From Xylella taiwanensis (GTDB lineage Bacteria; Pseudomonadota; Gammaproteobacteria; Xanthomonadales; Xanthomonadaceae), in NCBI RefSeq assembly GCF_013177435.1, contig NZ_CP053627.1, forward strand, positions 750,001-782,000: a DNA stretch of 32,000 nucleotides, given 5' to 3'. The stretch's first letter is position 1, and each line of letters starts with the position of its first letter. The notes below the pieces were generated by a model that saw only the letters and a program-made list of their open reading frames with translations, had not been told where the DNA came from and ran no database searches. This document shows, in pieces, positions 4,704 to 21,400 of this stretch. The translations under genes and the position numbers were made by a program.

Positions 4704-5189
4704 ATGACTGACAAACCCTATAATCCCGATGCGCACGCACATCCGGGGCTTCACGCCATCGCCCTATTGGAAGCATTTAAGGGTTTGCTTACGTTGGTTG
4801 GCGCTACTGGTCTAGAACTACTTGGTCCGTTGCCGCTGCAGAACATCGTATCCAATTTGATTCGGCTTCTCCATCTCGATCCAGAGCATGGTGCTTTACC
4901 TTCGTTGTTGAAGATGATCGACCCCAACGCGGTGCATTTGGCCGCAGCCGCAATGTTAGCCTACGGCGTGCTGCACCTGATCGAATCCTGGGGGCTGTGG
5001 CGGGTTAAGGCTTGGGCCTCGCTCCTGGGTTGCGTGTCGGCAGCGATCTACTTGCCATTTGACATCTACGCGATTGTCCATCATCCCGGGTGGCCCTCTT
5101 GGAGCGTCCTAGCGATCAACCTGTTAGTGGTTGGAGTCTTAACTCGTGACTTGATTCGGCGTCGCCTGCCTCAGCGCTGCGTTAGCTGA
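4704..5189 (+). CDS. Small inner-membrane protein (DUF2127-like), 161 aa
   Basis: GAGG at 4691-4694 lies 9 nt upstream of ATG 4704, which is 20 nt after the typA stop, so co-transcription is likely. There are about four hydrophobic helices. The family name comes from remembered sequence resemblance only (HAIALLEAFKGLL ... ESWGLW). Confidence 0.7.
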   Translation: MTDKPYNPDAHAHPGLHAIALLEAFKGLLTLVGATGLELLGPLPLQNIVSNLIRLLHLDPEHGALPSLLKMIDPNAVHLAAAAMLAYGVLHLIESWGLWRVKAWASLLGCVSAAIYLPFDIYAIVHHPGWPSWSVLAINLLVVGVLTRDLIRRRLPQRCVS

Positions 5190-5763
5190 TATGCAATCTG
5201 ATTCACTTCTCATCATCACATTCAAGTTTGAAGGATCTTTGTCTATAAGCCGCTTATTGTCCGTGGCACGATTTTTCGAAGTGTAGAGATAATCAAGGGT
5301 ATGATGAAATCAACCCTGTTCTTTGGAGTGATGTTAAAACATACGTGCTAGAGCGCTTTGCCTGATGATAGGGAGCACGTGATGCCGTAGCCTGATCTCG
5401 TAGCACGCACCTGTGTTTACATTCCGGCTCAGATGGGGAATGTCAAGCCGCGTACCGTTGAAAAATTCAGACAATTGATGTGTATCAATGACCGTACAAC
5501 AAGTAGTTCAACCTGTTGGGGGCAAAGATGAAATCAATATTGAACGACGTAATGGTTATTTTGTAAGTTCTCTGAACTGGAAGGTTAGAAATTCTTGCTA
5601 TCCACATCATCTGAATGGGCTATCAACTGTTAATCCATTTGAATTGCTAATCAATATGCGTAATAGCGAAGAAAATATAAATGAAATTAACGAAAATATG
5701 ATTTGCATTTTTTATTGAGAAGTTGATATAACTCTTCCAATAAAAATGTGACAGCCATCAATA

Positions 5764-7026
5764 GTGAAGGATCTGTTCCGCAAAGAAGTACTTGAGGCAA
5801 AGCGCACAAGTTGGCTTGGTGGTATCTCTTTGATCCAACCAATTAAAGCATGGTTGTTAGTGCTGGCATCCAGCATGATGGCGCTGTTAGTTGTGCTGTT
5901 TCTCTGCTTAGGGACTTACACCCGTAGGTCCAGCGTAACGGGGCAACTCGTGTCATCTAAAGGACTGGTGACGGTAGTAGCACCTGCTACGGGTACAGTA
6001 AGCCAGATCAAAGTGTCCGAGGGAACTAATGCACTTTCTGGGCAGATACTTGCATTGGTGACAGTGCCGCGGACTACTGTTACCAGTGGTGATGCCACCA
6101 GGGCCTTGGAACAGCGGTTACAGGAGCGGAGGCAGGGGTTGTCGATGAGTCAACAAGCTCAGATGCAAGTGCTATCCGCGCAAACATCAGGCATTGAAGC
6201 GCAACTGAGTGCCGCACAACGTGAGTTGGCACAGATCGAAATTGAGATTGCGACTCGTCAGAAACAGATACAGATTGCCAACGAAACTTTACAGCGCTTG
6301 AAGCAGTTGGAGGATGCGCGTTACGTGGGCACACTGCAAATCAAACAACAGGAGTCCACCGTACTGGACTACACCAGCCAAATGCAGGCAATGCAACGCC
6401 AAGCCATCATGACTCGACGGTCTATTGCTCAGTTGCAACAATCCTTAAGGGAATTGCCGGGGCAGTATCAGAATTCCGAGGCAAACTACCGACGCGAACT
6501 GGCGCAACTGGAGCAGGAACAGGTAGAAACCGAGGCTCGTGGTGCGCTTTCTGTAGTTTCCCCAATCGATGGAGTCATTGCTACCCAGATTGTCAAGCCT
6601 CAGCAAACAGTGCAGGCAGGGCAACCAATGTTGAGTTTGTTACCAGTAAATGGTGAGTTGGAAGCAGAACTCCTCTTGCCGAGTCGCGCCATTGGTTTTA
6701 TTGAGCAAGGTGATGAGGTTCGTTTACGTTACCAAGCTTATCCGTATCAGAAATTCGGTCATCAACGTGGTCGAGTGTCTAGAATTAGTCGTAGTGCATT
6801 GACTTCAGGTGAGCTTGGAGCATTAATCGGTGATACCCGACAAGCCGAACCGTATTACCGAGTTATAGTGAAGATTCCCCAACAGTCCATCACAGCCTAT
6901 GGTCGGCAGGAACCTTTAAAACCTGGAATGTTGATTGATGCTGATATTCTTAGCGAAAAACGTCGATTAATCGAATGGATATTCGAACCATTGTACTCGT
7001 TGCGAGGAAAGGTTAGTAATAATTGA
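5764..7026 (+). CDS. cvaA: HlyD-family membrane fusion / bacteriocin secretion protein (CvaA-like), 420 aa
   Basis: The N-terminus LFRKEVLEAKRTSWLGG followed by a single TM segment and then GTYTRRSSVTGQL parallels E. coli CvaA (FRQDALENRKMKWQG ... GTYSRRVNVSGEV). It also has a long coiled-coil centre and the C-terminal motif LSEKRRLIEWIFEPLY. The start is GTG, with no clear SD. Confidence 0.9.
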   Translation: MKDLFRKEVLEAKRTSWLGGISLIQPIKAWLLVLASSMMALLVVLFLCLGTYTRRSSVTGQLVSSKGLVTVVAPATGTVSQIKVSEGTNALSGQILALVTVPRTTVTSGDATRALEQRLQERRQGLSMSQQAQMQVLSAQTSGIEAQLSAAQRELAQIEIEIATRQKQIQIANETLQRLKQLEDARYVGTLQIKQQESTVLDYTSQMQAMQRQAIMTRRSIAQLQQSLRELPGQYQNSEANYRRELAQLEQEQVETEARGALSVVSPIDGVIATQIVKPQQTVQAGQPMLSLLPVNGELEAELLLPSRAIGFIEQGDEVRLRYQAYPYQKFGHQRGRVSRISRSALTSGELGALIGDTRQAEPYYRVIVKIPQQSITAYGRQEPLKPGMLIDADILSEKRRLIEWIFEPLYSLRGKVSNN

Positions 7027-7244
7027 TTTTTCAAATAATAATATGAAATGGGTTTGAATATATAAATGGGTATGTTTTTTAGGTATTATTTTGTTATACG
7101 CAAATGCGTAAGATGCTGAGCTTCGAAAGTAAGGAGATATTTTCTAAGAATAAATTAATTTTATTTATTTCCTTTTTATTTTCTTATGTAATTTCAACTC
7201 TTCAAAATTAAGCTGTGTTAGACCAACTTATAGGAATGGATCAA

Positions 7245-7478
7245 ATGCGTGAACTCGCTGCACAAGAAATTGGAAACGTTGATGGTGGCGTTTACATATT
7301 GAATTTAAATTATGGAGGTTTTTCAAGAAATCCTTTTTTAGCATTTTTGGGGATCGGAAATACGGCGATTGCGGTAAACTTTGGTCGAGGTGGATCTTCC
7401 TTTTACAGCAGGCCAACACTTAATATCGACAATGTAAATGTTATTAACGTCACTCAGGAAATACATCAACCAGTCTGA
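7245..7478 (+). CDS. Double-glycine-leader peptide A (77 aa; leader 15 aa + core 62 aa), bacteriocin/microcin-like PCAT cargo
   Basis: The leader MRELAAQEIGNVDGG matches the ColV-type pattern, with hydrophobic residues at -4, -7 and -12, Glu at -8 and GG at -2/-1. GGA lies 9-10 nt upstream of ATG 7245. Upstream in-frame starts at 7236 (ATG) and 7215 (GTG) are possible but would lengthen the leader atypically. The gene lies between cvaA and cvaB. Confidence 0.75.
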   Translation: MRELAAQEIGNVDGGVYILNLNYGGFSRNPFLAFLGIGNTAIAVNFGRGGSSFYSRPTLNIDNVNVINVTQEIHQPV

Positions 7479-7671
7479 AGATTGGGGCGTTGTTTTATAG
7501 CCGTTCGCTAAATCTGGGGAAGATGATGAATTGTTAAGGAACATGCAGAAGCGATTGAAGCAAGGAAGATGAAAACTTCCTACTCCTGATGGGGTTGCTT
7601 TTTATTATTTTCTGCAATCCTCCTCCTTATTTTCATTATCTCCATAATAACTGACTATGGAAATGAATCAA

Positions 7672-7962
7672 ATGCATGAACTTTCTGTCCAAGAAATCAA
7701 AAACGTTGGTGGTGGCTTTTTCTTTGTTCTTTTTCCTGAGAGTTTTTCAAACGCGACTATTTCATCTGTTACGTTTGGATCTATTCCGAGTAGAACTCGT
7801 CCGTTTGAATCTCTTTCGATACCAGAACCTGTTGTCTCCGGACCTATTTCCTCCGGAATAGGCATTTTTGGAACTGGCACTGGATTTCTAAGGACTTCCA
7901 GCCGACATGTTTCTATCGGCACCGTAAATATTTACAATATTGACCAACAGATCACTCTATAA
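7672..7962 (+). CDS. Double-glycine-leader peptide B (96 aa; core 81 aa), PCAT cargo
   Basis: The leader is MHELSVQEIKNVGGG. An alternative start at 7657 would add MEMNQ. The core is Ser/Pro/Gly-rich and ends in TVNIYNIDQQITL, a motif shared with peptides A and C. Confidence 0.75.
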   Translation: MHELSVQEIKNVGGGFFFVLFPESFSNATISSVTFGSIPSRTRPFESLSIPEPVVSGPISSGIGIFGTGTGFLRTSSRHVSIGTVNIYNIDQQITL

Positions 7963-8162
7963 CATCACCTTATTCAAGGAATAACTCAGCGAATTTTAAA
8001 ATTGGAGCCGTTATTTTATAACAGTTCTTGCTAAATCTGAGTAAAAATGATGAATCATTAAGGAGCATGCAGAATGATCCAAGCAAAGGAAGAAGATGAA
8101 ATGAAAGCTTTCTGCAACTTTCCTCCTTATTTTCATAATAATCGATCATGGAAATGAATCAA

Positions 8163-8426
8163 ATGCGCGAACTTTCTGTCCAAGAAGTAAAAAACGTTGA
8201 TGGCGGCTTTTTATTCTTTGTTTCCTCAGGTATATCTTCCCCTGAAATTATTTCGCCTGTTTCACCTGTTGCGTTCAGCCCTTATCCGTCGTCTGGGGGG
8301 TTTCCTTTTAAATCTGATGGATCCAGTGCAAGCCTTTTGGGATATAATCTTGGAAAACTCGTCGTACAAGAGTTTTTTGTGCGACGTGTAAATGTTTATA
8401 ACATCACTCAAGTAATAAATAAATAA
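8163..8426 (+). CDS. Double-glycine-leader peptide C (87 aa; core 72 aa), PCAT cargo
   Basis: The leader is MRELSVQEVKNVDGG. An alternative start at 8148 would add MEMNQ. The core is Ser/Pro-rich and ends in RVNVYNITQVINK. Confidence 0.75.
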   Translation: MRELSVQEVKNVDGGFLFFVSSGISSPEIISPVSPVAFSPYPSSGGFPFKSDGSSASLLGYNLGKLVVQEFFVRRVNVYNITQVINK

Positions 8427-8637
8427 CATCACTCAAGAAGTAATTCAGCGAAGTATTGGTTTTATAGTTTTTCTCAGTCAAAATAGACAGAGATGATGAA
8501 TTATTAAGGGGTATGCGGGGTAATCTAAGCATAATTAAGATGAAAACTTCCTGTTGTTAATGGAGTGACTCTTTATCGCTTCCTGCAATCTCCCCTTAAT
8601 TTTCATTGTCTTAATATTTACTGTTGGTATTAATTAA

Positions 8638-8868
8638 ATGCGTGAACTTTCTTTCCAGGAAATCGAAAACGTTGAGGATGGTTGCTGTGGAATTATTATT
8701 GGATGCGCAATTGGTGGAGCCGTAGTTGTAGGAGCAGCTGTTGTTACAACTGTTGCTATTAGAGTTATAGCTCTTTATTGGAATTGGGGAAACGTTGCGT
8801 TCAATCTCCAACCTTGTGCTTCCAATAATGGTTGCAGTCAAAATGTTGTCAAATATGAATGTAAATAG
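8638..8868 (+). CDS. Leader-bearing hydrophobic Cys-containing peptide D (76 aa), colicin V/class II microcin-like
   Basis: The leader MRELSFQEIENVEDG is collinear with those of A-C but has Asp-Gly at -2/-1. The core CCGIIIGCAIGGAVVVGAAVVTTVAIRVIALYWNWG... is Gly/Ala/Val-rich with six Cys, including a C-terminal CASNNGC...YECK cluster. Confidence 0.75.
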   Translation: MRELSFQEIENVEDGCCGIIIGCAIGGAVVVGAAVVTTVAIRVIALYWNWGNVAFNLQPCASNNGCSQNVVKYECK

Positions 8869-9052
8869 TGTCACCCGAGGACTAAATTAACCAACCTGAA
8901 GATTTGGTGTGTTGGTTTTATGGTCGTTCCTAGTTAAAATCGGTGAAGGTGGTGAATACTAAAGGGTATGTAGGGATTATAGAAACATAAAAAAACACTG
9001 TACTTTCAATACTAACACTACTAATTTAAATATAAATTTTAATGACTTAGAA

Positions 9053-9087
9053 AAAATCAACCATCATAAGGAGCGTTGATTTTCTTT
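9053..9087 (+). terminator. Candidate rho-independent terminator after the peptide array
   Basis: Perfect 9-bp stem AAAATCAAC (9053-9061) / GTTGATTTT (9075-9083) with a 13-nt loop, running into the T-rich sequence TTTTCTTT. The stem is AT-rich, so this is only a moderate call. Confidence 0.4.
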
Positions 9088-9305
9088 GGAATTTTGCGGG
9101 GCTGTATTAAGAACTGATGCCGCCTCTTCTTTTTAATTTGAAAATTTCTTTATATTCTATTACTTAACTTGCAACATATTAAGATGAAGCTTTAACATGA
9201 ATCGCCTGAAATGTACTCGATTGCATTTTAACAAAAATTTTTCATCATGTTTGATGATGCTGTTCAAATGTCATTGAGGCGTCAATTTACCATAATGGAT
9301 CTAAA

Positions 9306-11417
9306 ATGAGACCTGTTTTGCAATCTGAGGTCAGTGAATGTGGCTTGGCTTCGCTGGTGATGCTAGCGAACGCTCATGGCAAGCATCTGAGCCTATCCCA
9401 GCTTCGTCAGCGTTTTCCTTCATCCCTTAAAGGCGCCAAACTGACTCATCTGGTTCATATTGCACAACAGCTTGGCTTTTCTACTCGTCCACTGCGCCTG
9501 GATATGGAAGATCTGAATAAGCTTAAACTGCCTTGCGTTCTGCACTGGGATCTCAACCACTTTGTGGTGCTGGCAAAAGTCGGTACCACTAAGGCCACCA
9601 TTTATGACCCAGCCATCGGCAAGCGAAAGCTTTCACTCAATGAAGTGTCAAAATACTTCACTGGTATAGCCCTTGAATTGACACCTACGACCGAATTCAA
9701 GCAACAGAAAGCACCTCCTTCGATCTCAGCACGTCAGTTGACCGGTCCGATCCGAGGATTGTGGAGGGCTTTGGCCCAGATTCTGTTATTGTCGCTAGCT
9801 TTACAGGTCTTTGCAGTGCTGTCGCCTTTCTACATGCAATGGGTCGTGGATCAGGTATTGGTCTCGGCTGATCGCGATCTGCTGGTGGTACTGGGATTGG
9901 GCTTCGGATTGGCGCTGTTGCTTCAGATCGCCATCGGTTTGTTTCGTGGCTGGTCAGTGGTCTACCTGTCGTCAAGGCTTGGCCTGCAATGGATGGCTAA
10001 CGTGTTCGCACATCTGTTGAAGCTGCCATTGGAGTACTTCGAAAAGCGCCATCTTGGAGACTTGACTTCTCGCATGTCTTCGGTGCAATCGATCCAGAAA
10101 ACGTTGACCACCAGTTTCGTTGAAGCGATTATTGACGGGCTGATGACGATCGTCACACTGGGTTTGATGCTCGTTTACAGTTGGAAGCTGGCATTGGTCA
10201 CATTGGTAGCGGTGGTGTTGTACCTGCTCATCCGTGCCATTTCATACTGGCCAGTACGCGACTGTACCGAGCAGCAATTAGTTGTTGGTGCAAAACAGCA
10301 GAGCCATTTGCTGGAATCACTACGTGGCATTCAAAGTTTGAAAGTGGCAGGTGAAGAGTCGCTACGCCGTTCTACTTACGACAACCTACTCAACAACACG
10401 GTCAACCAAGAAGTGCGATTGGCACGCATGTCATTGGGTTTCTCGAGCGCTAGCCAACTTGTGTTCGGACTGGAGCGCATCGGAGTGATCTGGTTAGGTG
10501 CGAAATTGGCGTTGGACAACGTATTCTCGGTCGGCATGTTGATCGCCTATTTATCCTACAAAGATCAGTTCACTTCGCGGATCTCTAGCTTGATTGATAA
10601 GTGGGTTGAGTTCCGCATGTTGCGCCTACATGGCGAACGGTTGGCTGATATCGTCTTGACCTCTCCGGAGGAGGACTACGAATTGCCGGAAATGCAGCTA
10701 CCGAAAAAAGAACCAGATATCGAAGTGGATGGATTGTCGTTCCGCTATGGTGAAGGTGAACCATGGATATTGAAAGATTGCAGCTTCAAAATCGCAGCGG
10801 GCGAATCGGTGGCAATCATTGGTGCCTCGGGCTGCGGTAAAACGACACTGATGAAGTTGCTGCTTGGGTTGCTGAAACCTACCACAGGTACGATACGTAT
10901 TGGTGGGCGGGATTTACATAAATTCGGCGCACGTAATGTGCGTTCGGTTGTTGGTGCGGTGATGCAAGATGATCAACTCTTTGCGGGTAGCGTCGCTGAT
11001 AACATCAGTTTTTTTGATCCGGACTTCGACCTGGAGCGTATTGAAGCGGCAGCGAAGTTAGCCGCAATCCATGACGATATCGCCGCGATGCCAATGGGGT
11101 ATCACGCGTTGATCGGCGATATGGGCAGTGCGCTATCCGGCGGACAGAAGCAACGTGTTATCTTGGCCCGTGCGCTTTACCGCCACCCCAAGTTGCTGTG
11201 CCTGGACGAGGCAACCAGCCATTTGGACGTCACGCGAGAGCGCTTAGTCAACGAGGCGGTACACCAGTTAAAACTGACCAAAGTGATTGTGGCACACCGC
11301 CCGGAGACCATTGCTAGTACGGATCGTGTCGTCATTTTGGATCATGGACGGATCGTGCAAACAGTGGCAATGCCAACAGATCATCAAGAGTCAATCGAAA
11401 TGGTGCAGAACACGTGA
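9306..11417 (+). CDS. cvaB: Peptidase C39 domain-containing ABC exporter (PCAT; CvaB-like bacteriocin processing/export ATPase), 703 aa
   Basis: N-terminal C39 motifs are present: catalytic Cys in QSEVSECGLASLVML (codon 9339-9341), His in HWDLNHFVVL, and then IYDP. A six-helix exporter TMD follows. The NBD has Walker A GASGCGKTT, signature LSGGQKQR and Walker B LLCLDEATSHLD. Confidence 0.93.
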   Translation: MRPVLQSEVSECGLASLVMLANAHGKHLSLSQLRQRFPSSLKGAKLTHLVHIAQQLGFSTRPLRLDMEDLNKLKLPCVLHWDLNHFVVLAKVGTTKATIYDPAIGKRKLSLNEVSKYFTGIALELTPTTEFKQQKAPPSISARQLTGPIRGLWRALAQILLLSLALQVFAVLSPFYMQWVVDQVLVSADRDLLVVLGLGFGLALLLQIAIGLFRGWSVVYLSSRLGLQWMANVFAHLLKLPLEYFEKRHLGDLTSRMSSVQSIQKTLTTSFVEAIIDGLMTIVTLGLMLVYSWKLALVTLVAVVLYLLIRAISYWPVRDCTEQQLVVGAKQQSHLLESLRGIQSLKVAGEESLRRSTYDNLLNNTVNQEVRLARMSLGFSSASQLVFGLERIGVIWLGAKLALDNVFSVGMLIAYLSYKDQFTSRISSLIDKWVEFRMLRLHGERLADIVLTSPEEDYELPEMQLPKKEPDIEVDGLSFRYGEGEPWILKDCSFKIAAGESVAIIGASGCGKTTLMKLLLGLLKPTTGTIRIGGRDLHKFGARNVRSVVGAVMQDDQLFAGSVADNISFFDPDFDLERIEAAAKLAAIHDDIAAMPMGYHALIGDMGSALSGGQKQRVILARALYRHPKLLCLDEATSHLDVTRERLVNEAVHQLKLTKVIVAHRPETIASTDRVVILDHGRIVQTVAMPTDHQESIEMVQNT

Positions 11418-12423
11418 CAATGATGATGGCGATTGCTGTGATATGCAGCGGTCCAATCATTAAATGCTTGATCATCTTATCGTTTTCAGCATTGTGTTGC
11501 GTTTCATCGCCATAGCATATCTGGCTCATTTGAAAGCCTTGAAAGCTTGGATGGAGAATTGCGCTTGTTTATGAGGCGTCTCATTGGGCTGCTAAGTGTA
11601 GAACGTGGCTATATTGATGCCGTGTCAGTGTAATAACGCCGCTATCGTTCATCTGGTTGTGCCCCGCTTGCTGGCATCTATGCTTGGGTTGCCAGTGAAT
11701 CAGGATATTTTGATTGAGAAAGAATCTGTCTGGAAAATGACTGTTTCTTCAGGGTATTTGTTTTATGTGTGGATGATGGGTTAACTTTTTTTGACGAAGA
11801 TCGGCTGATTATCTAAGCACAGCAAAAGCGGCTCCTTGACTCGCTTGATTTACAAAATCAGGTGATTGTGGCATGTCGATATTGTGCTTACCTGAATCTT
11901 GCCGTTAGCGGTGATTATGATTGACCGAGATGCCAACCTTTAACACGGAAGCGTTACTGTACTCCTGTGGTTGTTAATTGCAGTCATCAGGGTACCGTGT
12001 GATAGTCGGATGATAGCTTGGTTTCGATCACCCCCGGGATCTATTGGACCAGATCAGTGGGGTTTGTCATACACGTTACGCTGAATGCTCATGTTTGGCC
12101 CATAGCCCGTGCTCTGGGCTTCATTGATTCAGATGCCGATGTCGACAAGAACAAACCCGAACTATAGGCTGTGTTTGTGTCATGGTTGTTCATGATGGAT
12201 GGATATCCCCAACAGCAATTCGGCGTTTGATCTATTTTTTTGTTCGTCACTTCGTTGTTTATTCGTGTTTCCTTTTGGAAGTTACATCTGCGCATAAATT
12301 CAGAGGGGTATAACAATCTGCATGTTTGGTCTCCCAAGTACGTAGTGATTATTAAACTCTCACAGAGTCTAGGCTTGGTACAAAGCAATCAATTCAAGAG
12401 GATTTCAGCCTTGCAATCCTGAC

Positions 12424-13236: not shown

Positions 13237-14217
13237 TTAGGGTGTGGCAGCGTACGCTGGCAGGCTTTCAGTGATGTTACGGTTCTCTGTACTGGTCAAG
13301 CGTATAAACAGCTCTTCCAGACGATTACTCTTGGTACGCATCGAGCGTACTTGGATGTTGGCGGCACTCAGCGCAGCGAACACGCGATTCAGGTCCATTG
13401 CGCGTGGCATGTTCAAGTCCAATGTGTGATCGTCCAACGCGCTTAGCGTAGTGTTCTCAATTGTTGGAAGTTGCATCGGTAGTGTTCCGTCGATGTCGAG
13501 AAGAAAGCCTTCCACGTCTAGTTTGGCGAGCAGTGTACGCATAGGTCCCTTCTCGATGATCTGACCACGGTCGATGATGGCCAAATTACGACAGAGGCTT
13601 TCGGCTTCTTCAAGGTAATGCGTGGTGAGCATGATTGTGGTGCCACTGGCATTGATCTCCTGTAGGACGCGCCACATATCGCGGCGGATCTCGACGTCCA
13701 CACCAGCAGTAGGTTCATCCAGGATAAGCAAACGCGGTTGGGTCATCATCGCACGGGCAATCATCAAACGCCGTTTCATCCCACCGGACAGGGTACGGCT
13801 CATCACCTGTGCCTTCTCCCACAGGTACGCGCGCTTGAGCTCAACCTCTGCCAGTGCTTCAGCTTCAGCGTGCGGTATGCCGTAGAAGCCGGCGTAGTTG
13901 ATCAGAATGTCTAAAGGTTTTTCGAACAGGTTGAAGTTGATCTCCTGTGGTACTAGGCCGATCAGTCGCATTGCCGCACTACGTTCGTGTACCAAGTCAA
14001 TGCCGAACACTTCGACGTTACCGCTGCTCAGATTGACTAGCGAACTGACGATGCCGATTAAAGTGGACTTGCCGGCGCCGTTGGGACCAAGTAGAGCGAA
14101 GAAATCACCTGGGTTAATGTCCAGACTGATCCCTTTCAGGGCCTGCGTACCATTGCTGTAGGTCTTGTGCAGATGATGCACGTGCAGAGCGGGTGCATGA
14201 GGGACAGTTGAGTTCAA
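13237..14217 (-). CDS. yadG: ABC transporter ATP-binding protein (YadG-like), 326 aa
   Basis: Walker A GPNGAGKST, signature LSGGMKRR and Walker B LLILDEPTAGVD are present. The start is TTG at 14217, preceded by AAGGA with a 7-nt spacer. It is in an operon with the permease. Confidence 0.9.
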   Translation of the reverse strand: MNSTVPHAPALHVHHLHKTYSNGTQALKGISLDINPGDFFALLGPNGAGKSTLIGIVSSLVNLSSGNVEVFGIDLVHERSAAMRLIGLVPQEINFNLFEKPLDILINYAGFYGIPHAEAEALAEVELKRAYLWEKAQVMSRTLSGGMKRRLMIARAMMTQPRLLILDEPTAGVDVEIRRDMWRVLQEINASGTTIMLTTHYLEEAESLCRNLAIIDRGQIIEKGPMRTLLAKLDVEGFLLDIDGTLPMQLPTIENTTLSALDDHTLDLNMPRAMDLNRVFAALSAANIQVRSMRTKSNRLEELFIRLTSTENRNITESLPAYAATP

Positions 14218-15184
14218 GTGGAATTCCTTGAGTGCCTGAGTGGCAGCATGACGAAGATTGCGGCGCTAATTATAGAAGACGTGCGGGGCTTGTCCGATCA
14301 TGGACTGTTTCAAAATCGTACATGACTGTTCAATGTCTCCTGAATCACTTGTTTTCCCGATCTTTGCATGATTTGTGCCTACCTTGGCTTACTGCCGTTT
14401 TATATGGGATAACGGCTCATTCCTGGATTTTCAGCGATGGTGAGTGCGTGCAGGTTTATTGTGTGCATGTTGATGGTACTGGGGCTAAGCACGGCTGGCT
14501 ATTCGTTGGTGGTCATTTGTGACGACACGCTTCAATGAGTATTTTCTTAATAGGTTGATCTCAGCAAGAAAAGTGGTGTGTCTTTTCGACGTACAAGGGA
14601 TTTTCTCTGTGAATATATTTCGGTCTCACAAGCCTGCCGCACCCATTTGAATCTGTCACTGGAGCGTGCGATGCATTTCGAAATCATTTTTTGTGTAGAT
14701 CGTGACGTGTGAAACGTCTGTTAAGTTTCGATTCTTGAGGTATTCGATCCAGTGTTGATCATATGTTTTAACGAGACTCAAACAGATTGTTAGTAATTCT
14801 TTCTTTTTTGTACCATTACTGTTAGGGTTGATATTGAGCTTGATTAATGTTTTAACTATAAATTAAATTCATTTTTATTTTATTTCTTGCATTTATTTAT
14901 AAATGAATTTTTAATTTGGATCATGATACTTCTTATTTTCATCAGGTATGGGTTGTTAGAGATATTAATGCAATTTCAAAATTTCATGGCGCTAAAAATA
15001 ATGGTACGTTAGATACTACTGTGCGCCGTTAAATCGCGGCAATAAAATTTTTTATTCAATTATTCATTGATTTAAAGACTTTCATTGCATGTCTTATATG
15101 AACTTTTACGGTTCATTGGTGTGCGATGGTGCGTGATTAACTAGCGGATTGAATTTATCCAAGGGAGGGAATCAAGGAGTAGGC

Positions 15185-18100
15185 ATGAGCAAGATGATTC
15201 TTAACAACGTCTTATTTTTGAGGTGTGTGGCCACGGTATGCATCGGTACACTCGCTGGTATAAGCGGTGCGGTGCAGGCGGGAGTGGAGATCTCTCAGTC
15301 CCCGTTGTATGTTGGCAGCGAAGTGCCTGGCAATCTTGCCATTGTTGCGTCTGTCGAGTATCCCACGTTGGTCAGTGTGGCTAACCTTGCCAGCACCTAC
15401 ACGCAAGGAGTTAGGTATGTTGGGTACTTCGATTCCAACAAGTGCTACCAATACAATTACAGTGCTGATGAGCGCCAGCGTTACTTCTATCCCGTTGCGT
15501 CTCCAAGGCCTAAAGCCGATTACAGTTGCGATACCTCCCGGGGTGCGTGGGCCGGGAATTTTCTGAACTGGGCCGCCACCCAGACGATCGATCCGTTCCG
15601 CTCCGCATTGACCGGCGGTTATCGCGTGCGCGACACGACCAACGAGACAATTCTGGAAAAAGCAGACATGGATCGCCCGTATCAGGTGAATTACCCGCGT
15701 CGCACGCTCGAAGGCCGGAATTTGCTCGCCGCTTCAGTGCCTGCGCAGTGGGGCAGATTCCGTATCCGCATCGATGGCCTCGGCAACACAATGCGGTTTA
15801 CTCAGGCGACCCCCGCCTTCTCCAATTGGTGGCAAGAACCTTTAGAGAAGGACGGTCAATTTTACGATCCTTCCAAGCACGCATTGAACTGGAATGATAA
15901 TGGCATTTACGAAGTCAGCGTCCGGGTCAAGGTGTGTGATCCATTGGTCGGCCTGGAGCCCAACTGTGTGGCCTATCCCAGTGGCTCCTACAAGCCCGAG
16001 GGGCTGATCCAGCAATATTCCAAGCGCATCCGATATAGCATTTTCGGTTATAAAAATGATGACAGTACTGTGGTGGACGGAGGCGTGTTGCGTGCCAATC
16101 AGAAGTTTGTCGGACCCAAGACCTACTATCCGAATGAAGGCGAGAAAACCAATCCCTATGCGGAATGGGATGCGCAGACCGGCATCTTCTATCCCAATCC
16201 CAATCCTGCTGATGCCGCGGCGACCACCCAGCGGGTGGGCCGTACGATCGCTCATTCCGGTGTGATCAACTATTTGAATAGATTTTCTCAGATGAATACC
16301 GGTAAGAGCGCAAAAGGGTATGACCCTGTCAGTGAGCTCTACTACACGGTAGTTCGCTATTTCAAAGGGTTGGGCGATATTCCAGAATATTCAGTATTGA
16401 CCGGTTCGGTAAACGAAAAGTACCAGCAGGCCGATGCCTTCCCGGTGATTACGACCTGGGATGATCCTATCCGTTATGCCTGCCAGAGCAATGTTGTCCT
16501 TGGAATTGGTGACACTCACACCAATTTTGACAAGAATCTGCCCGGTGATACCAACACCGAGGGAGAGCCTGCCAAACCGCAATTGGTCAGAAACGATACA
16601 AGCGTTGACGTGGTTAAACGTATGGCGCAGATCTTCCAGATGGAGGGCAGGAGCCGGGCTGATGCGCTGGCGGCGGCCCGGGCATCTACTTTCAACTTTC
16701 ATAATAAAAATTCGGCTTATATTGCAGCGCTGGCTTACGATGCCCATACCAAGGACATGCGTCCTGATCTTGAAGGGGATCAGTTTTTAACGACCTACTG
16801 GGTCGACGTGGTGGAGGCTGAGGACTACAAAAATCCAGTAGAAACTAACCAATACTGGTTGGCCGCGAAATATGGCGGATTTCAAGTGCCTGCCGGTTAC
16901 GATCCGGATAAGACGCTCAAAGCTCTGCCAGAGGCTACCTGGTGGAGTAGCCGCGAGTACTTCACTGACGATAAAAACAATCGTACCTTCAAGCGTGCGG
17001 ACAATTTCTACATTGCTGCTGACGCAGAAAAGATGGTGTCCAGCCTGAACAAAGCATTCTCGCGGATCGTGGCCGAGACAAAGGGCTCAGGCACCGGATT
17101 GTCCAGTAATGGTGCCAGGCTTGAAACCGGCGCCGTCACCTACCAGACACAGTTTTTCAGCGGCACCTGGCGTGGCGATCTGAGCGCCTATCACGTGGAC
17201 AAAGTGACCGGTGCGCTCACTCCGTTTTGGAGCGCGAACGCGAACTTCCCGGCGTGGGACCGGCGCGTCATCAAGTTTTCTAGTGCCGCCACACTGAAAG
17301 ACTTCACCAAAAACAACCTAAGCCAAACGCCACTGGCATCGGCCAGTGCCGCGCAGATTGATTACCTGCGCGGTAATCGTAGCCAGGAGGGCAGCGGGCC
17401 GGGCAAGCTCCGGGTACGCAGCGGCCTCATGGGGGATATTGTCAACTCCCAGCCGTTGTATGTGGGCGCGCCCAACCCCCGGCTATACACAGCGGCGCGC
17501 TTCAGCGGGGCGTCGGCTTATGCAGCGTTCGCCGCCGTGCAGGCCAACCGCGTGCCGGTGATCTACGTGGGGGCCAATGACGGCATGCTGCATGCCTTCA
17601 ATGCCAATAACGGTACAGAGATCTTTGCCTTTGTCCCTCAAGCGGCGATGCCCAGATTGCTTGAGTACACCGATCAGAACTACGTACACCAGTATTACGT
17701 TGATGGGGAGCTGACCGCGGCCGATATTTACGACACGACTTTACGGACGTGGCGTTCGGTGCTGGTGGGGACCCTGGGCCGTGGCGGGACAGGCGTGTTC
17801 GCCTTGGATGTGACCGACCCTTCCAATATTGGTGTGCTATGGGACAAAACGTCTACGGACATCAGCGGTCTGGGAAATATCCTAAACAAACCCATGATTG
17901 TTCAGACGTCTGATGGGACATGGTCCGTTTTGCTTGGCAATGGTCCCAACAGCACCGCAGACAACGCCCAACTGATCGTGATCAACCTGCTGACTGGCCA
18001 AGCAACCCAAATAGCTGTGAGCAAGGCTTCAAGCAATGGACTGTCGGGTGTGCTGCCTTGGTCCAGTCAGGGCAACGGCATCACGGATCGCGTGTATGCC

Positions 18101-18880
18101 GGGGACCTGCTGGGCACGCTGTGGCGCTTCAGTCTTACCGATCGCGTGTGGAAGGCGGAGCCGATGTTCAATGCCGAGTATCAGGGAAAGGCGCAGCCGA
18201 TCACCGCAACGCCGCTGGGGGCCATCGAGCGATCCACTGGACGCACGTGGATCTTCTTTGGGACGGGCCGTGCGTTGTCTTCGCATGATCTGGGTAACAA
18301 GGAGGTCCAGAGCTGGTATGGCTTGATTGACCAGGGGACGACGATCAAAGGGCGCAGCACGCTCAGCCAGGTGCAGATTCTTGATGAGGGCGAAGTCAAT
18401 CATGATGCCGTTCGTGTGGTGGCCGATCCTGGCAATGTTGGTGCTGATGGCTGGTACATGGATTTGATCTCGCCGCAGTCCGGCAAGCAGGGAGAACGGA
18501 TGATCGTATCCAACATGTTCCGTGGAGGGGTGCTGATCGGGACCACCCGAATCCCGGATAACAGCAATGTCTGCAAGCCCAGTGGCAAGGGTTTTGTGAT
18601 GGCGATTAATCCGTTCACAGGTGGGCGATTGCGTCAATGGTTTTTCGATTTAGGCAACACCGGTGGTGCGGGCAGTGGTAGTACGCTCAATGGCAATCCG
18701 GTATCCGGGGTGGGTGTGGACAGTGCGCCGAATAGTCCGGTGTTTACCGGGCACATCATGCAGGTGGGGACTGATGATGGCACGGTCACGTCGCTCAAGA
18801 CACCGCCTTCCAGCGGTGGCTACAACATGAGCCGTGTCTCATGGCGTGAAATCCTGAGGTCTGAATTTACGAAAAAATAA
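15185..18880 (+). CDS. pilY1: Type IV pilus tip-associated adhesin/biogenesis factor PilY1 (PilC family), 1231 aa
   Basis: AAGGAG at 15174-15179 precedes ATG 15185. The signal peptide is [32 protein letters not shown], followed by the ISQSPLY motif typical of PilY1 N-termini. C-terminal beta-propeller hallmarks are present ([54 protein letters not shown]). The track start at 15149 is an upstream TTG. Confidence 0.9.
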
Positions 18881-19242
18881 TGGATAGAGGTGCTCCATCA
18901 TCTGGATTATTTCTACAATGCTTGGAAGCTCTTAAAGAGCGTATTATCCCCTCAGCGGCAGTGACCAACCGTGCAGATTAGGCTCACCAAGGAGAAAAAT
19001 ACTTCCAGGTGCATTCACAGGATCTAGCAAATGTAGTACGTAACGGGCTATTTACTACACCCCTTGAGGCTGGATGGATAATCAACTACTGCTCTAACAT
19101 TGCCCAGGGTTACACAGGGGCGAATCCAGCACATGGCGATAGGGGCAAATGATGGTATGCCGGGTGATTTCGTGTGCCGAGTTCAATAAAGATTACTTAG
19201 TTGTTGCTATGTCGTATCAGTTATCTTTACGGTCATGACCAA

Positions 19243-19275
19243 GCTGCATCTCAATATGTTGTATTGAGATGCAGC
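19243..19275. repeat. Perfect 14-bp inverted repeat / hairpin
   Basis: GCTGCATCTCAATA (19243-19256), a TGTTG loop, then TATTGAGATGCAGC (19262-19275). It is intergenic between convergent pilY1 and the 158-aa ORF, and no U-tract follows on either strand. Confidence 0.8.
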
Positions 19276-19401
19276 AGGTCTGCCCTCTTAAGATGCATGA
19301 CTACAAGCCGCAATCCATGAAGCTTAATTATGATCTCTTACTTTGATTATGTTTACTGAAATCCTTTTCATTTGCGAATGAAATTTTCATTCTTCCTTTT
19401 T

Positions 19402-19460
19402 TCAAGTAGCACAGCGCTATTGTGCTTACTTGAGTGAAAAAACCGCCTGTCACCGGGGGC
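19402..19460 (-). terminator. Candidate terminator region for the 19531-20007 ORF
   Basis: Read on the minus strand, a short GC stem (CCCCC/GGCGG with one mismatch) is followed by U6 (complement of A19437-19442). Immediately after it comes a 12-bp bulged hairpin (19402-19433). Confidence 0.35.
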
Positions 19461-19530
19461 AAAAAAGAAACAGCGCACAACTTAGCCTGGCTTTGGTATG
19501 GGAAGGGCAAAGTCTGCCGCACAGCATCGC

Positions 19531-20007
19531 TTACTTGGCTTCAGATACCGATTGCACGCTGTTATTAGGTTGACTCGGGATAACATGCACTCCACGCGCT
19601 TTCATCCATGCGTCGAACTCATCCGCTGTCATGCGCTTACCTTCTTGGCTCATGTTGAAGCGCCAGGGCGTGTTGTCGTAAATGGTTTGCTGCTTGTAAT
19701 CGGTATTGTTATTTAACTTGACTGCACTTTCGAGTGAAGGCGCTTTGGCAATGCTTTGGTGACTATTTACCCGCAAGTGTAGCAACACGGGGTCTATTAA
19801 ATACTCGCTGTTGTAAGTTTTTGACAGTACTCTGCTGGGTATGCCTAATGCGATGTTTGGGTTGTAGAACACAGTGTTTACTTGTGTAACCACCGTCGCT
19901 GGAACCAATTGATTAAAAGGGGTGTTGACAGAATACTGAGGCGTGGAAGCCTCTACGACAGAAGTCACTAAGAGATACAAAAAACCAGCTGTAGCGAAAC
20001 GCAGCAT
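19531..20007 (-). CDS. Hypothetical secreted protein, 158 aa
   Basis: N-terminal signal peptide MLRFATAGFLYLLVTSVVEAS. It is the only long ORF in this interval, and I recognise no family. Confidence 0.55.
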   Translation of the reverse strand: MLRFATAGFLYLLVTSVVEASTPQYSVNTPFNQLVPATVVTQVNTVFYNPNIALGIPSRVLSKTYNSEYLIDPVLLHLRVNSHQSIAKAPSLESAVKLNNNTDYKQQTIYDNTPWRFNMSQEGKRMTADEFDAWMKARGVHVIPSQPNNSVQSVSEAK

Positions 20008-20439
20008 AGTGAAGTTTATCCGCTGGATTGAAAGTCATTGCAGTTTAGACTGCGGTTGCTACGCTTTCAACCAATTTTAATTGAGATATGAATAAAATGA
20101 GAGAATCTTAACATTGCATTCGAATATGTACTAACTAAAGTGTGTTCCGATTTGAAATCTAAGCTGGCAGCTTGCTTAGATATTAAATCTCTGTCTAAAG
20201 GGGGCGTTAGGTTATTCTCAATATTAAGTTAAAAAATCATTTATCGAGCCAGATTATAATTTAGCCTCATCACTTGGGACATGCAGTCATTTGATTTGAA
20301 AATCGTGCTTGAACAGGATTTGCACTTCCCCAGCTTCCTATGCGGTGAGATTAAATTTAGTTAATTGACTAGCTGATTTGGTTTTGTTACACAAATTGAG
20401 CGAAAAGTCAGCCTAACCAATCCAGGACGGATTGATGGC

Positions 20440-21400
20440 TTGGTGATGATCACTAGGGGTTCAGAGTTGGGTGAAACGGTCGAGCAATGCAGCTTGTTCC
20501 TGAAGCTCTGTAATCTGATGGGCAAAGTCACCAGACATCATGTGCGTGCCCAGCCATTCCAAATACCACACTTATGGTTGCAACGATGTAGCATTGATGG
20601 TCAACGCTTATCCTCCGACCCAGGCCCGGTGTTGCCTTGATGATTCCCGAGGGTTTCATGGCCTGTGGGCACTCGGAGGATATGTTTTCCATCGCCCGGC
20701 ATTTCTTCTGTTGGTGGTCTCGATGGCGCGTATTTCCTATGGTCTGGACGTCACATCTCAGATGTACCTTGCGCCACTGACGGCAGTAGTCAGTACCGCA
20801 CTGCTTTGTTTTTTATTTTTCTTTCACTGGGTATCTTGACACCCGTGCTATCCACCAGCCGTTCCCAAACATCGCTCCTGCCACCTAGGGTATGGCGAGC
20901 TGCAAGTACTTTTATCGCCAAGAGATCGTGTTGAAATCCGGTGCCGGCCAATCCAGGCTTGCCAATCTCGGCAGACTGTCTGCCAGCCAATGCTTCGATG
21001 TCATGACAGGCCAAACAAACACTTCAGCGTTATGCGGTGGTGACTGGCCACGTGTGCTGTCACTACCGGCAAACCATGCGGTCTCTTGTCTTGTCAGAGA
21101 CCTTGCAAGCTTCGGGATTTGAGTGCTGTGTTATCCGCTCATCAGTCCGTCGTTCGGTACTTCTTTTCTGTCGGCTTTATCAGGTCTATTCGAGCACACA
21201 TGTCCAGTCCAGCAACGTGTATGCCTATGTGTGCAACAAAGTCCGGTATCTGGGAATAAATTGAAACTAACTTCAATAGAAAATGGAGTACGACCGAGCC
21301 ATCATCTGGAAAAGACAGATCTTTTATGAAGGCCGGTTCTATCTCACTCATTCTTGAATGCGAACAACACCCTCTGGTAGAGCTGTAATGATACATAGTG
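20440..21400 (-). pseudogene. IS5-family (IS903-like) transposase relic, broken by multiple frameshifts and stops
   Basis: Minus-strand fragments in three frames keep the order of my recollection of the IS903 transposase. FPDDGSVVLHFLLKLV...PDFVAHIGIHVAGLD (21142-21396) corresponds to YSDLAI..VLVIKRVF..QGFIDSI. WERLVDSTGVKI (within 20790-21014) corresponds to HLVIDSTGLKV. The frame-shifted RQWRKVHLRCDVQT (20782-20741) corresponds to RRIWRKLHLAVDS. The plus strand carries only short overlapping ORFs in all frames. The element ends are not defined. Confidence 0.6.

Follow-up and report, generated by a model that had tools for sequence, protein, structure and literature searches.

A colicin V-type export locus of Xylella taiwanensis with four leader-bearing peptide genes, a candidate class II microcin system

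In Xylella fastidiosa, the genes cvaA (PD0496) and cvaB (PD0499) have been named as colicin V (ColV) export genes (PMC7017821), and a figure adapted from Michiels et al. lists XF1219 among double-glycine peptides (PMC2761928). Secretome studies of X. fastidiosa detected XF1217 and XF1219 (PMC10673610, PMC5183587), and XF1217/PD0497 and XF1218/PD0498, which are among the most abundant transcripts, were called newly identified microcins (bioRxiv 10.1101/2025.08.15.669762). The classical cvaC genes and the cvi immunity gene are found at a different X. fastidiosa locus (PMC11885251). The locus analyzed here lies at positions 5764 to 11417 of a 32-kb stretch of the Xylella taiwanensis genome (the window, from whose first letter all positions are counted) and consists of a cvaA-like and a cvaB-like gene with four small cargo genes between them. 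Judged by sequence and gene order, it is the ortholog of X. fastidiosa XF1216-XF1220 / PD0496-PD0499 and represents, in another species, a locus that is known and has been noticed before, not a new kind of system. The reading favored here, with moderate confidence, is that of a class II microcin-type (ColV-type) type I secretion locus whose peptides are secreted competition factors. The present analysis adds that the cargo splits into three paralogs and one unrelated peptide, that the family of peptides 1 to 3 is restricted to Xylella, that Xylella lacks a transmembrane (TM) open reading frame (ORF) carried by related loci, and that the fourth slot shows turnover and an atypical D-G site.

The exporter pair and the orthologous locus

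An earlier note on this DNA claimed that CvaA-like and CvaB-like genes flank four small ORFs on the same strand, which is borne out by the domain matches and the coordinates. The cvaA-like gene (5764-7026, + strand) encodes a membrane fusion protein of the HlyD family with 420 amino acids (aa) and an N-terminal TM segment. It matches HlyD_3 in Pfam (E value of 3.6e-17) and the type_I_hlyD model TIGR01843 in NCBIfam (E value of 1.2e-42), with a TIGR01843 score below the curated cut-off, as the model is that of a subfamily. The protein shares a 90% cluster with the "Colicin V secretion protein" Q87E31 and is 93% identical to X. fastidiosa CvaA, with a ratio of nonsynonymous to synonymous substitution rates (dN/dS) of 0.10. 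The cvaB-like gene (9306-11417, + strand) encodes a peptidase-containing ABC transporter (PCAT) of 703 aa, in which a C39 domain (residues 4 to 129, about 9315-9692) is followed by the transmembrane and nucleotide-binding domains. Its Pfam matches are Peptidase_C39 (5.1e-35), ABC_membrane (6.8e-39), and ABC_tran (1.2e-33), so that the C39, ABC_membrane, ABC_tran, and HlyD families were all matched in the profile search of the two transporters. This CvaB is 93% identical to that of X. fastidiosa and 40.9% identical to that of E. coli over 96% of its length.

The C39 domain was aligned with LahT150 (6mpz), PCAT1 (4ry2), and ComA (8hf6). Cys12 (in SECGLASL) falls on the CG motif and His85 (in NHFVV) on the HFVV motif, which we take to be the locations of the catalytic cysteine and histidine in PCAT1 and ComA, and Gln6 and Asp101 are conserved as well. 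Since all four residues are in place, the domain is predicted to be an active C39 peptidase rather than a C39-like domain. The catalytic residues that the earlier note had picked out (Cys in SECGLASL and His in HWDLNHFVVL) are therefore intact on alignment with these proteins of solved structure. An export system of the NHLP/Nif11 bacteriocin type was considered and rejected: the scores are below the equivalog cut-offs (501 versus 853 for the exporter model TIGR03796 and 58 versus 156 for TIGR03794), and the leaders have 15 residues and are not of the NHLP type.

All six proteins match X. taiwanensis records exactly, with the small ones annotated as hypothetical proteins. Six X. fastidiosa strains, among them De Donno (CP020870), and a third Xylella species represented by metagenome assemblies share with X. 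taiwanensis the gene order mdh, PPIase, typA, DUF2127, cvaA, cargo genes, cvaB, and a convergent ABC-2 pair. X. fastidiosa carries four leader-bearing genes, namely, XF1217 to XF1219 and a fourth that is often unannotated, and the same four-gene set is present in the third species. The view of the earlier note that the genome is of the Xylella type and that the transporter pair is not new agrees with the exact matches and with the orthologs named in the literature. The set of four cargo genes, which it had singled out as the notable part, has likewise been noticed already and is shared with X. fastidiosa and the third species. The note had also considered that the small genes might be neither transcribed nor translated; in X. 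fastidiosa, their orthologs are transcribed and present in the secretome (bioRxiv 10.1101/2025.08.15.669762, PMC10673610, PMC5183587).

Leaders, cargo peptides, and control regions

In a six-frame translation of the window, the leader pattern M[RH]EL..QE[IV].NV.[GD]G has exactly four matches, at 7245, 7672, 8163, and 8638, all of which are on the + strand between cvaA and cvaB, with none elsewhere. A looser form of the pattern gave no match in 100 block-shuffles. The mechanically longest ORFs begin upstream, at 7215, 7657, and 8148. The M-R/H-E-L codon is the likely start, giving a leader of 15 residues, because GGAAAT-N6-7-ATG is conserved at this codon, whereas in the third Xylella species the upstream "MEMNQ" sequence is missing or lies in another frame. 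The four leaders fit the pattern of the E. coli CvaC leader, MRTLTLNELDSVSGG. Those of peptides 1, 2, and 3 end in DGG, GGG, and DGG, respectively, and thus have the form of class II microcin leaders, with 15 to 18 residues and a GG or GA ending; the leader of peptide 4, ending in E-D-G, does not have this ending in the strict sense. The earlier claim of a 15-residue leader common to the four ORFs accordingly holds for the pattern, found in 4 of 4, and needs qualification for the atypical end of the fourth. Among 60 leaders located beside cvaAB homologs, the last two residues are GG in 48, GA in 9, and GS, AG, and DG in 1 each, the sole DG being that of X. taiwanensis peptide 4 (Asp at position -2).

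Peptide 1 (7245-7478, + strand; 77 aa; leader MRELAAQEIGNVDGG at 7245-7289) has a predicted mature form of 62 aa and 6.8 kDa without cysteine and with the C-terminal motif NVNVINVTQEI. Its ortholog in X. fastidiosa De Donno (5599-5853 of locus L084) shows 70% amino acid identity and a dN/dS of 0.24. Peptide 2 (7672-7962, + strand; 96 aa; leader MHELSVQEIKNVGGG; alternative upstream ATG at 7657) would mature to 81 aa and 8.7 kDa; it is rich in Ser, Phe, Gly, and Ile, lacks cysteine, and has the C-terminal sequence VNIYNIDQQI. The X. fastidiosa ortholog, P0027, has a leader ending in G-A and shows 67% identity and a dN/dS of 0.44. Peptide 3 (8163-8426, + strand; 87 aa; leader MRELSVQEVKNVDGG; alternative upstream ATG at 8148) has a predicted mature form of 72 aa and 7.8 kDa without cysteine and with the C-terminal sequence VNVYNITQVI, and it is 52% identical to its De Donno ortholog (L084, 6541-6780), with a dN/dS of 0.43. 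The full C-terminal ends of peptides 1 to 4 are ...QEIHQPV, ...QQITL, ...QVINK, and ...KYECK.

Peptides 1 to 3 are paralogs with about 30 to 37% identity to one another. They have a hydrophobic mature N terminus (FFFV or FLFFV) and a common C-terminal motif, V-N-[VI]-[YI]-N-[IV]-x-Q-x-I, in which polar and apolar residues alternate (VNVYNITQ). The mature parts are free of cysteine, rich in Ser, Gly, Phe, Val, Ile, and Asn, near-neutral to basic, and without a glycine zipper. By sequence comparison, the cargo is therefore three paralogs and one unrelated peptide, not one set. Relatives of peptides 1 to 3 were found in Xylella only, both in a word-indexed search of 5.8 billion proteins and in a full HMMER profile search of 1.84 billion cluster representatives; one further HMMER match, to a repetitive 1005-aa protein (E value of 6.8e-4), was judged spurious. 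Between species, peptides 1 to 3 are 52 to 72% identical with dN/dS values of 0.22 to 0.46, compared with 0.06 to 0.10 for the transporters, and they diverge about four- to ninefold faster than CvaA and CvaB. Because of these dN/dS values, they are regarded as products of real coding genes under purifying selection. An AlphaFold2 (AF2) model based on the alignment of the peptide 1-3 family was uninformative (pLDDT of 38).

Pfam, NCBIfam, and PADLOC gave only sub-threshold matches for the four peptides. Those of peptide 3 were to Bacteriocin_IIc (residues 3 to 20) and TIGR03949 (residues 8 to 21, essentially the leader; 12.3 bits), and peptide 4 had two that were weaker. Assignment to the class IIb (siderophore-) microcins was rejected, since the Ser/Gly-rich C-terminal motif is lacking and no linked glycosyltransferase, esterase, or acyltransferase is present in the window.

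Peptide 4 (8638-8868, + strand; 76 aa; leader MRELSFQEIENVEDG) is unrelated to peptides 1 to 3 and has a grand average of hydropathy of 0.87. The predicted mature form has 61 aa, 6.3 kDa, six cysteines, and a polar, cysteine-containing C terminus, and its hydrophobic segment GIIIGCAIGGAVVVG contains a glycine zipper, with GIIIGCAIG corresponding to GxxxGxxxG. No homolog outside X. taiwanensis was found in the word-indexed search, and a local phmmer comparison gave no significant match among the cargo peptides of 80 related loci. UniRef labels it "class IIb bacteriocin, lactobin A/cerein 7B family"; this assignment was rejected, the TIGR03949 score being 10.1 bits against a cut-off of 21.5. The gene in the same slot of X. 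fastidiosa (L084, 6926-7126) shows DNA similarity limited to the upstream/promoter region and the leader, in which the recognition positions E-13, L/I-12, E-8, I/M-7, V-4, and G-1 are kept. Its product is a different hydrophobic peptide, starting with CCCEIIIG after a canonical H-G-G site, and the mature parts of the two species give phmmer E values of only 0.2 to 0.6. Cdz-like contact-dependent bacteriocins have been delimited by a length of 60 to 151 aa, a leader ending in G[GAS], the presence of one or two glycine zippers, and a C terminus that is short and polar (PMC5380434). Peptide 4 fits in length, glycine zipper, and polar C terminus, while its leader ends in D-G and not in G[GAS]. By its predicted features, this fast-evolving peptide is built like a membrane-inserting class IIa microcin or a Cdz-like toxin. 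In the third Xylella species (7161-7338 and 6791-6892 of L088; also L087), slot 4 is occupied in both assemblies by a copy of the X. taiwanensis type with a frameshift, and an extra degenerate leader-bearing unit is present, which suggests that cargo units undergo birth and death.

The cargo genes are arranged in four tandem duplication units (7206-8698, + strand), delimited from the repeat families D1, D3, D5, and D6 and from alignments. The start-to-start spacings are 427, 491, and 475 bp, and each unit comprises a gene and a conserved intergenic stretch. A conserved block of about 30 nucleotides, AAGATGATGAATNNTTAAGGNNCATGCNG, follows cargo genes at 7520-7550, 8044-8074, and 8490-8520 and could be a regulator binding site; weaker copies lie near 7080-7110 and 8945-8975, and the block, which is not an ORF, is partly conserved in X. 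fastidiosa. A mini-ORF in the conserved intergenic block ("MMN[CHY]*") was discarded, as it is not conserved across species. The -10-like sequences CATTAT/CATAAT occur within 7609-7639 and 8109-8139, a few bases upstream of the first ATG, and independent promoters may thus have been duplicated with the cargo genes. A generic scan for sigma-70 promoters and terminators gave no enrichment over shuffles; no Fur box with a match of at least 13/19 was found in the locus, where 12/19 matches were fewer than in shuffles; and Rfam and tRNA scans were empty.

Peptide 4 and cvaB are separated by an AT-rich spacer (8869-9305; 437 bp) that holds no credible ORF, the longest having 35 aa. Its last 208 bp or so (9098-9305), for which there is a conserved counterpart in X. 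fastidiosa, probably form the control region of cvaB. The G+C content of the cargo block is 36 to 40%, compared with 50 to 53% in most of the flanking sequence. Downstream of cvaB, about 1 kb (11418-12423; G+C content of 0.45 to 0.48) is without a credible ORF, and only its last 250 bp or so resemble X. fastidiosa; a 33-aa hydrophobic mini-ORF (11414-11515) overlapping the cvaB stop codon is not conserved. Outside the locus, stretches of low G+C content (about 0.40 to 0.45) also occur at 14217-15149, upstream of a PilY1-domain gene (15149-18880), and at 19000-20500.

Gene layout, immunity, and possible functions

For the comparison of layouts, 80 loci were retrieved with the exporter. The adaptor-cargo-exporter layout was found in 19 of 79 loci, and almost all loci with the most similar exporters belong to these 19. 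The closest relatives, from Xanthomonas, Pseudoxanthomonas, Stenotrophomonas, Lysobacter, and Arenimonas, have exporters with 70 to 80% identity and mostly this split layout, and the gap between adaptor and exporter holds one or two leader-bearing genes. Placing the cargo between the transporters is typical of the lineage. The departure from the E. coli ColV arrangement stressed by the earlier note is thus a real contrast with the ColV plasmid but the usual state in the nearest relatives.

Between cargo and exporter, these relatives usually have an ORF of 60 to 150 aa with one to five predicted TM segments, which is a candidate immunity gene. Multi-TM ORFs of this kind in Lysobacterales (5549-5992 of L005, 5467-5844 of L001, 5213-5620 of L011, 5637-5972 of L012, and 5727-5942 of L015) are of diverse, apparently unrelated types. 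In X. taiwanensis, no ORF with a predicted TM segment in a credible frame was found between 7026 and 9306 except peptide 4, in keeping with the earlier observation that no immunity ORF is visible. Further candidates were rejected. The DUF2127 gene (4707-5189) is syntenic only within Xylella and is not beside cvaAB elsewhere; the downstream ABC-2 pair (YadH/YadG-like) accompanies cvaAB only in Xylella, and its permease fits the YadH-type housekeeping model; and the small hydrophobic ORFs at 7104-7211, 8977-9060 (- strand), and 11414-11515 have no conserved counterparts in X. fastidiosa. Downstream of cvaB, the De Donno strain of X. fastidiosa has a 96-aa ORF (L084, 9712-10002, + strand) that is not annotated and has predicted TM segments; the corresponding X. 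taiwanensis sequence (about 12018-12313) is broken by stops and frameshifts, so that the ORF is not conserved. The statements of the earlier note that tailoring enzymes and a TolC-type gene are lacking were confirmed, as no tailoring gene was found in the window and no member of the OEP/TolC type among the large ORFs scanned in it. No two-component genes lie near the locus, the neighbors being typA, DUF2127, and the YadH/YadG-like ABC-2 pair. A double-glycine pheromone circuit resembling ComC/ComAB was rejected, as there is no adjacent histidine kinase with a response regulator.

A single cvaC-like gene is located elsewhere in X. taiwanensis (6001-6309 of L090), with the leader MRELTLAEIDNVSGA, whereas three such genes stand in tandem in X. 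fastidiosa. Upstream of the X. taiwanensis gene, a called gene of 72 aa (L090, 5460-5678) is unlike one for a TM immunity protein. Because the cvaC-like gene has the same leader and no PCAT or adaptor was found within 6 kb of it, the CvaAB of the window is probably an exporter shared with it.

In its exporter, C39 residues, adaptor, leaders (three of the four peptides), and peptide size, the locus has the defining features of a class II microcin system. If the locus operates as such a system, each small gene would be transcribed, probably from its own duplicated upstream region, and the C39 domain of CvaB would bind the 15-residue amphipathic leader and cut after Gly-Gly at residue 15, as in other members of the family. 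The mature peptide of 6 to 9 kDa would then leave the cell through CvaB, CvaA, and a TolC whose gene lies elsewhere, and this pump probably also exports the CvaC-like microcin, which is encoded separately. The peptides would most likely serve in competition with other bacteria of the xylem or the insect foregut. Since the locus holds no immunity gene, producers would either be insensitive by nature or owe their protection to a factor encoded outside the locus.

Several observations weigh against a microcin function. The adjacent immunity gene that class II microcins are described as always having (PMC10233263) was not found in the Xylella locus, though most related Lysobacterales loci have a TM ORF. 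No report of antibacterial activity was found in the literature on the locus, and the mature peptides showed no resemblance to known microcins or bacteriocins in the family libraries and profile search. Peptides 1 to 3 belong to the conserved core of the genus, whereas bacteriocins more typically vary in presence between strains. In addition, the processing of peptide 4 is uncertain because Asp at -2 is absent from the 59 other leaders.

The most serious alternative, though still a doubtful one, is that peptides 1 to 3 are non-toxins exported by the microcin route that serve the biology of the producer itself, for example as self-assembling or amyloid-like components of biofilm and adhesion or as diffusible signals, for which no immunity gene would be needed. 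The lack of an immunity ORF is consistent with this, as are the retention of orthologs under purifying selection in all three Xylella species and the very high abundance of the X. fastidiosa orthologs as transcripts and in the secretome. The Cys-free composition, the hydrophobic mature N terminus, and the alternation of polar and apolar residues toward the C terminus point in the same direction, and a review of microcins notes double-glycine peptides with signaling or biofilm roles (PMC10233263). However, a pheromone circuit would need an adjacent sensor kinase and regulator, which are missing, and the AF2 model is uninformative on aggregation. Moreover, related Lysobacterales loci pair such exporters with glycine-rich, hydrophobic, bacteriocin-like cargo and TM ORFs, and the authors working on X. 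fastidiosa interpret the peptides as microcins (bioRxiv 10.1101/2025.08.15.669762). A more specific proposal, which we consider unlikely, is that peptides 1 to 3 form a genus-specific, very abundant secreted family that uses the microcin exporter and is not self-toxic, with only the hypervariable slot 4 encoding a true toxin. This would explain core genes without an immunity partner, and peptides 1 to 3 could then self-assemble in the matrix or in adhesion, or be factors that a xylem pathogen directs at its host or vector.

It is improbable that the four peptides constitute one multi-component bacteriocin, on the model of class IIb-like bacteriocins with two to four peptides, composed of peptides 1 to 3 with or without peptide 4 and inactive as singles. 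The tandem, same-strand, similarly organized genes with duplicated control regions, the retention of all four slots in X. fastidiosa and X. taiwanensis, and the UniRef class IIb label of peptide 4 would fit such a system, but the TIGR03949 score behind that family (10.1 versus 21.5 bits) is far below the cut-off and the paralogs 1 to 3 are only about 30 to 37% identical. Peptide 4 is replaced in X. fastidiosa and frameshifted in the third species while peptides 1 to 3 persist, which argues against an obligate partnership with it. Finally, that peptide 4 is a membrane-retained, immunity-like peptide whose degenerate D-G site blocks cleavage and export is highly improbable: it is strongly hydrophobic, its Asp at -2 is unique among the 60 leaders, and it occupies the slot directly upstream of cvaB where relatives have small TM ORFs, but its leader recognition positions are conserved, the X. 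fastidiosa product has the canonical H-G-G, its sequence is not co-conserved with peptides 1 to 3, it is a pseudogene in a species that keeps them, and we know of no immunity protein with a double-glycine leader.

The favored reading of secreted competition factors and its alternatives bear on Xylella species as quarantine plant pathogens, in one of which, X. fastidiosa, the orthologs are highly transcribed and secreted. One cvaB mutant should remove the whole class of secreted peptides. The three-plus-one split, the exporter predicted to be competent and probably shared with CvaC, and the missing immunity gene sharpen the question of toxin versus matrix or signal.

Comparison with known systems

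The Caulobacter CdzABCDI system likewise combines a type I secretion pump with small proteins having a G[GAS] leader, and peptide 4 resembles its products in the glycine zipper and short polar C terminus. The Cdz-like family was defined partly from the X. fastidiosa CvaC XF_0262, and the passages of the Cdz survey that were consulted list proteins of the XF0262-0264 type, not the peptides of the present locus (PMC5380434). Peptides 1 to 3 differ from Cdz in having no glycine zipper, and the locus has no CdzI-like immunity gene.

The cvaA-cargo-(TM ORF)-cvaB loci of other Lysobacterales have the same split layout and leaders of the MRELxxxExxxVxGG type. They contain one or two glycine/alanine-rich hydrophobic cargo peptides, usually with a TM ORF, whereas the Xylella locus has four cargo genes, three of them from a genus-specific, non-hydrophobic family, and no TM ORF.

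E. coli ColV shares with the Xylella locus a PCAT with a C39 domain, an HlyD adaptor, and a 15-residue leader (MRELxxQEIxNVxGG in Xylella). Unmodified mature peptides of 6 to 9 kDa and a requirement for a TolC encoded elsewhere, both predicted for Xylella, are also common to the two. On the ColV plasmid, cvaA and cvaB overlap, and cvi-cvaC lies downstream on the other strand with the immunity gene. In Xylella, by contrast, the locus is chromosomal, the cargo is located between the transporters, there are four cargo genes and no immunity gene, and the mature sequences are without similarity to that of ColV.

The closest system remains X. fastidiosa XF1216-XF1220. Apart from the stretches described above, neither the spacer preceding cvaB nor the 1 kb following it is conserved between the two species, the mature part encoded in slot 4 is essentially unrelated (with D-G in X. 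taiwanensis versus G-G), and the peptide 2 leader ends in G-A in X. fastidiosa versus G-G in X. taiwanensis. The two loci have the same flanking genes in the same order, CvaA and CvaB proteins with 93% identity, and four leader-bearing genes between them.

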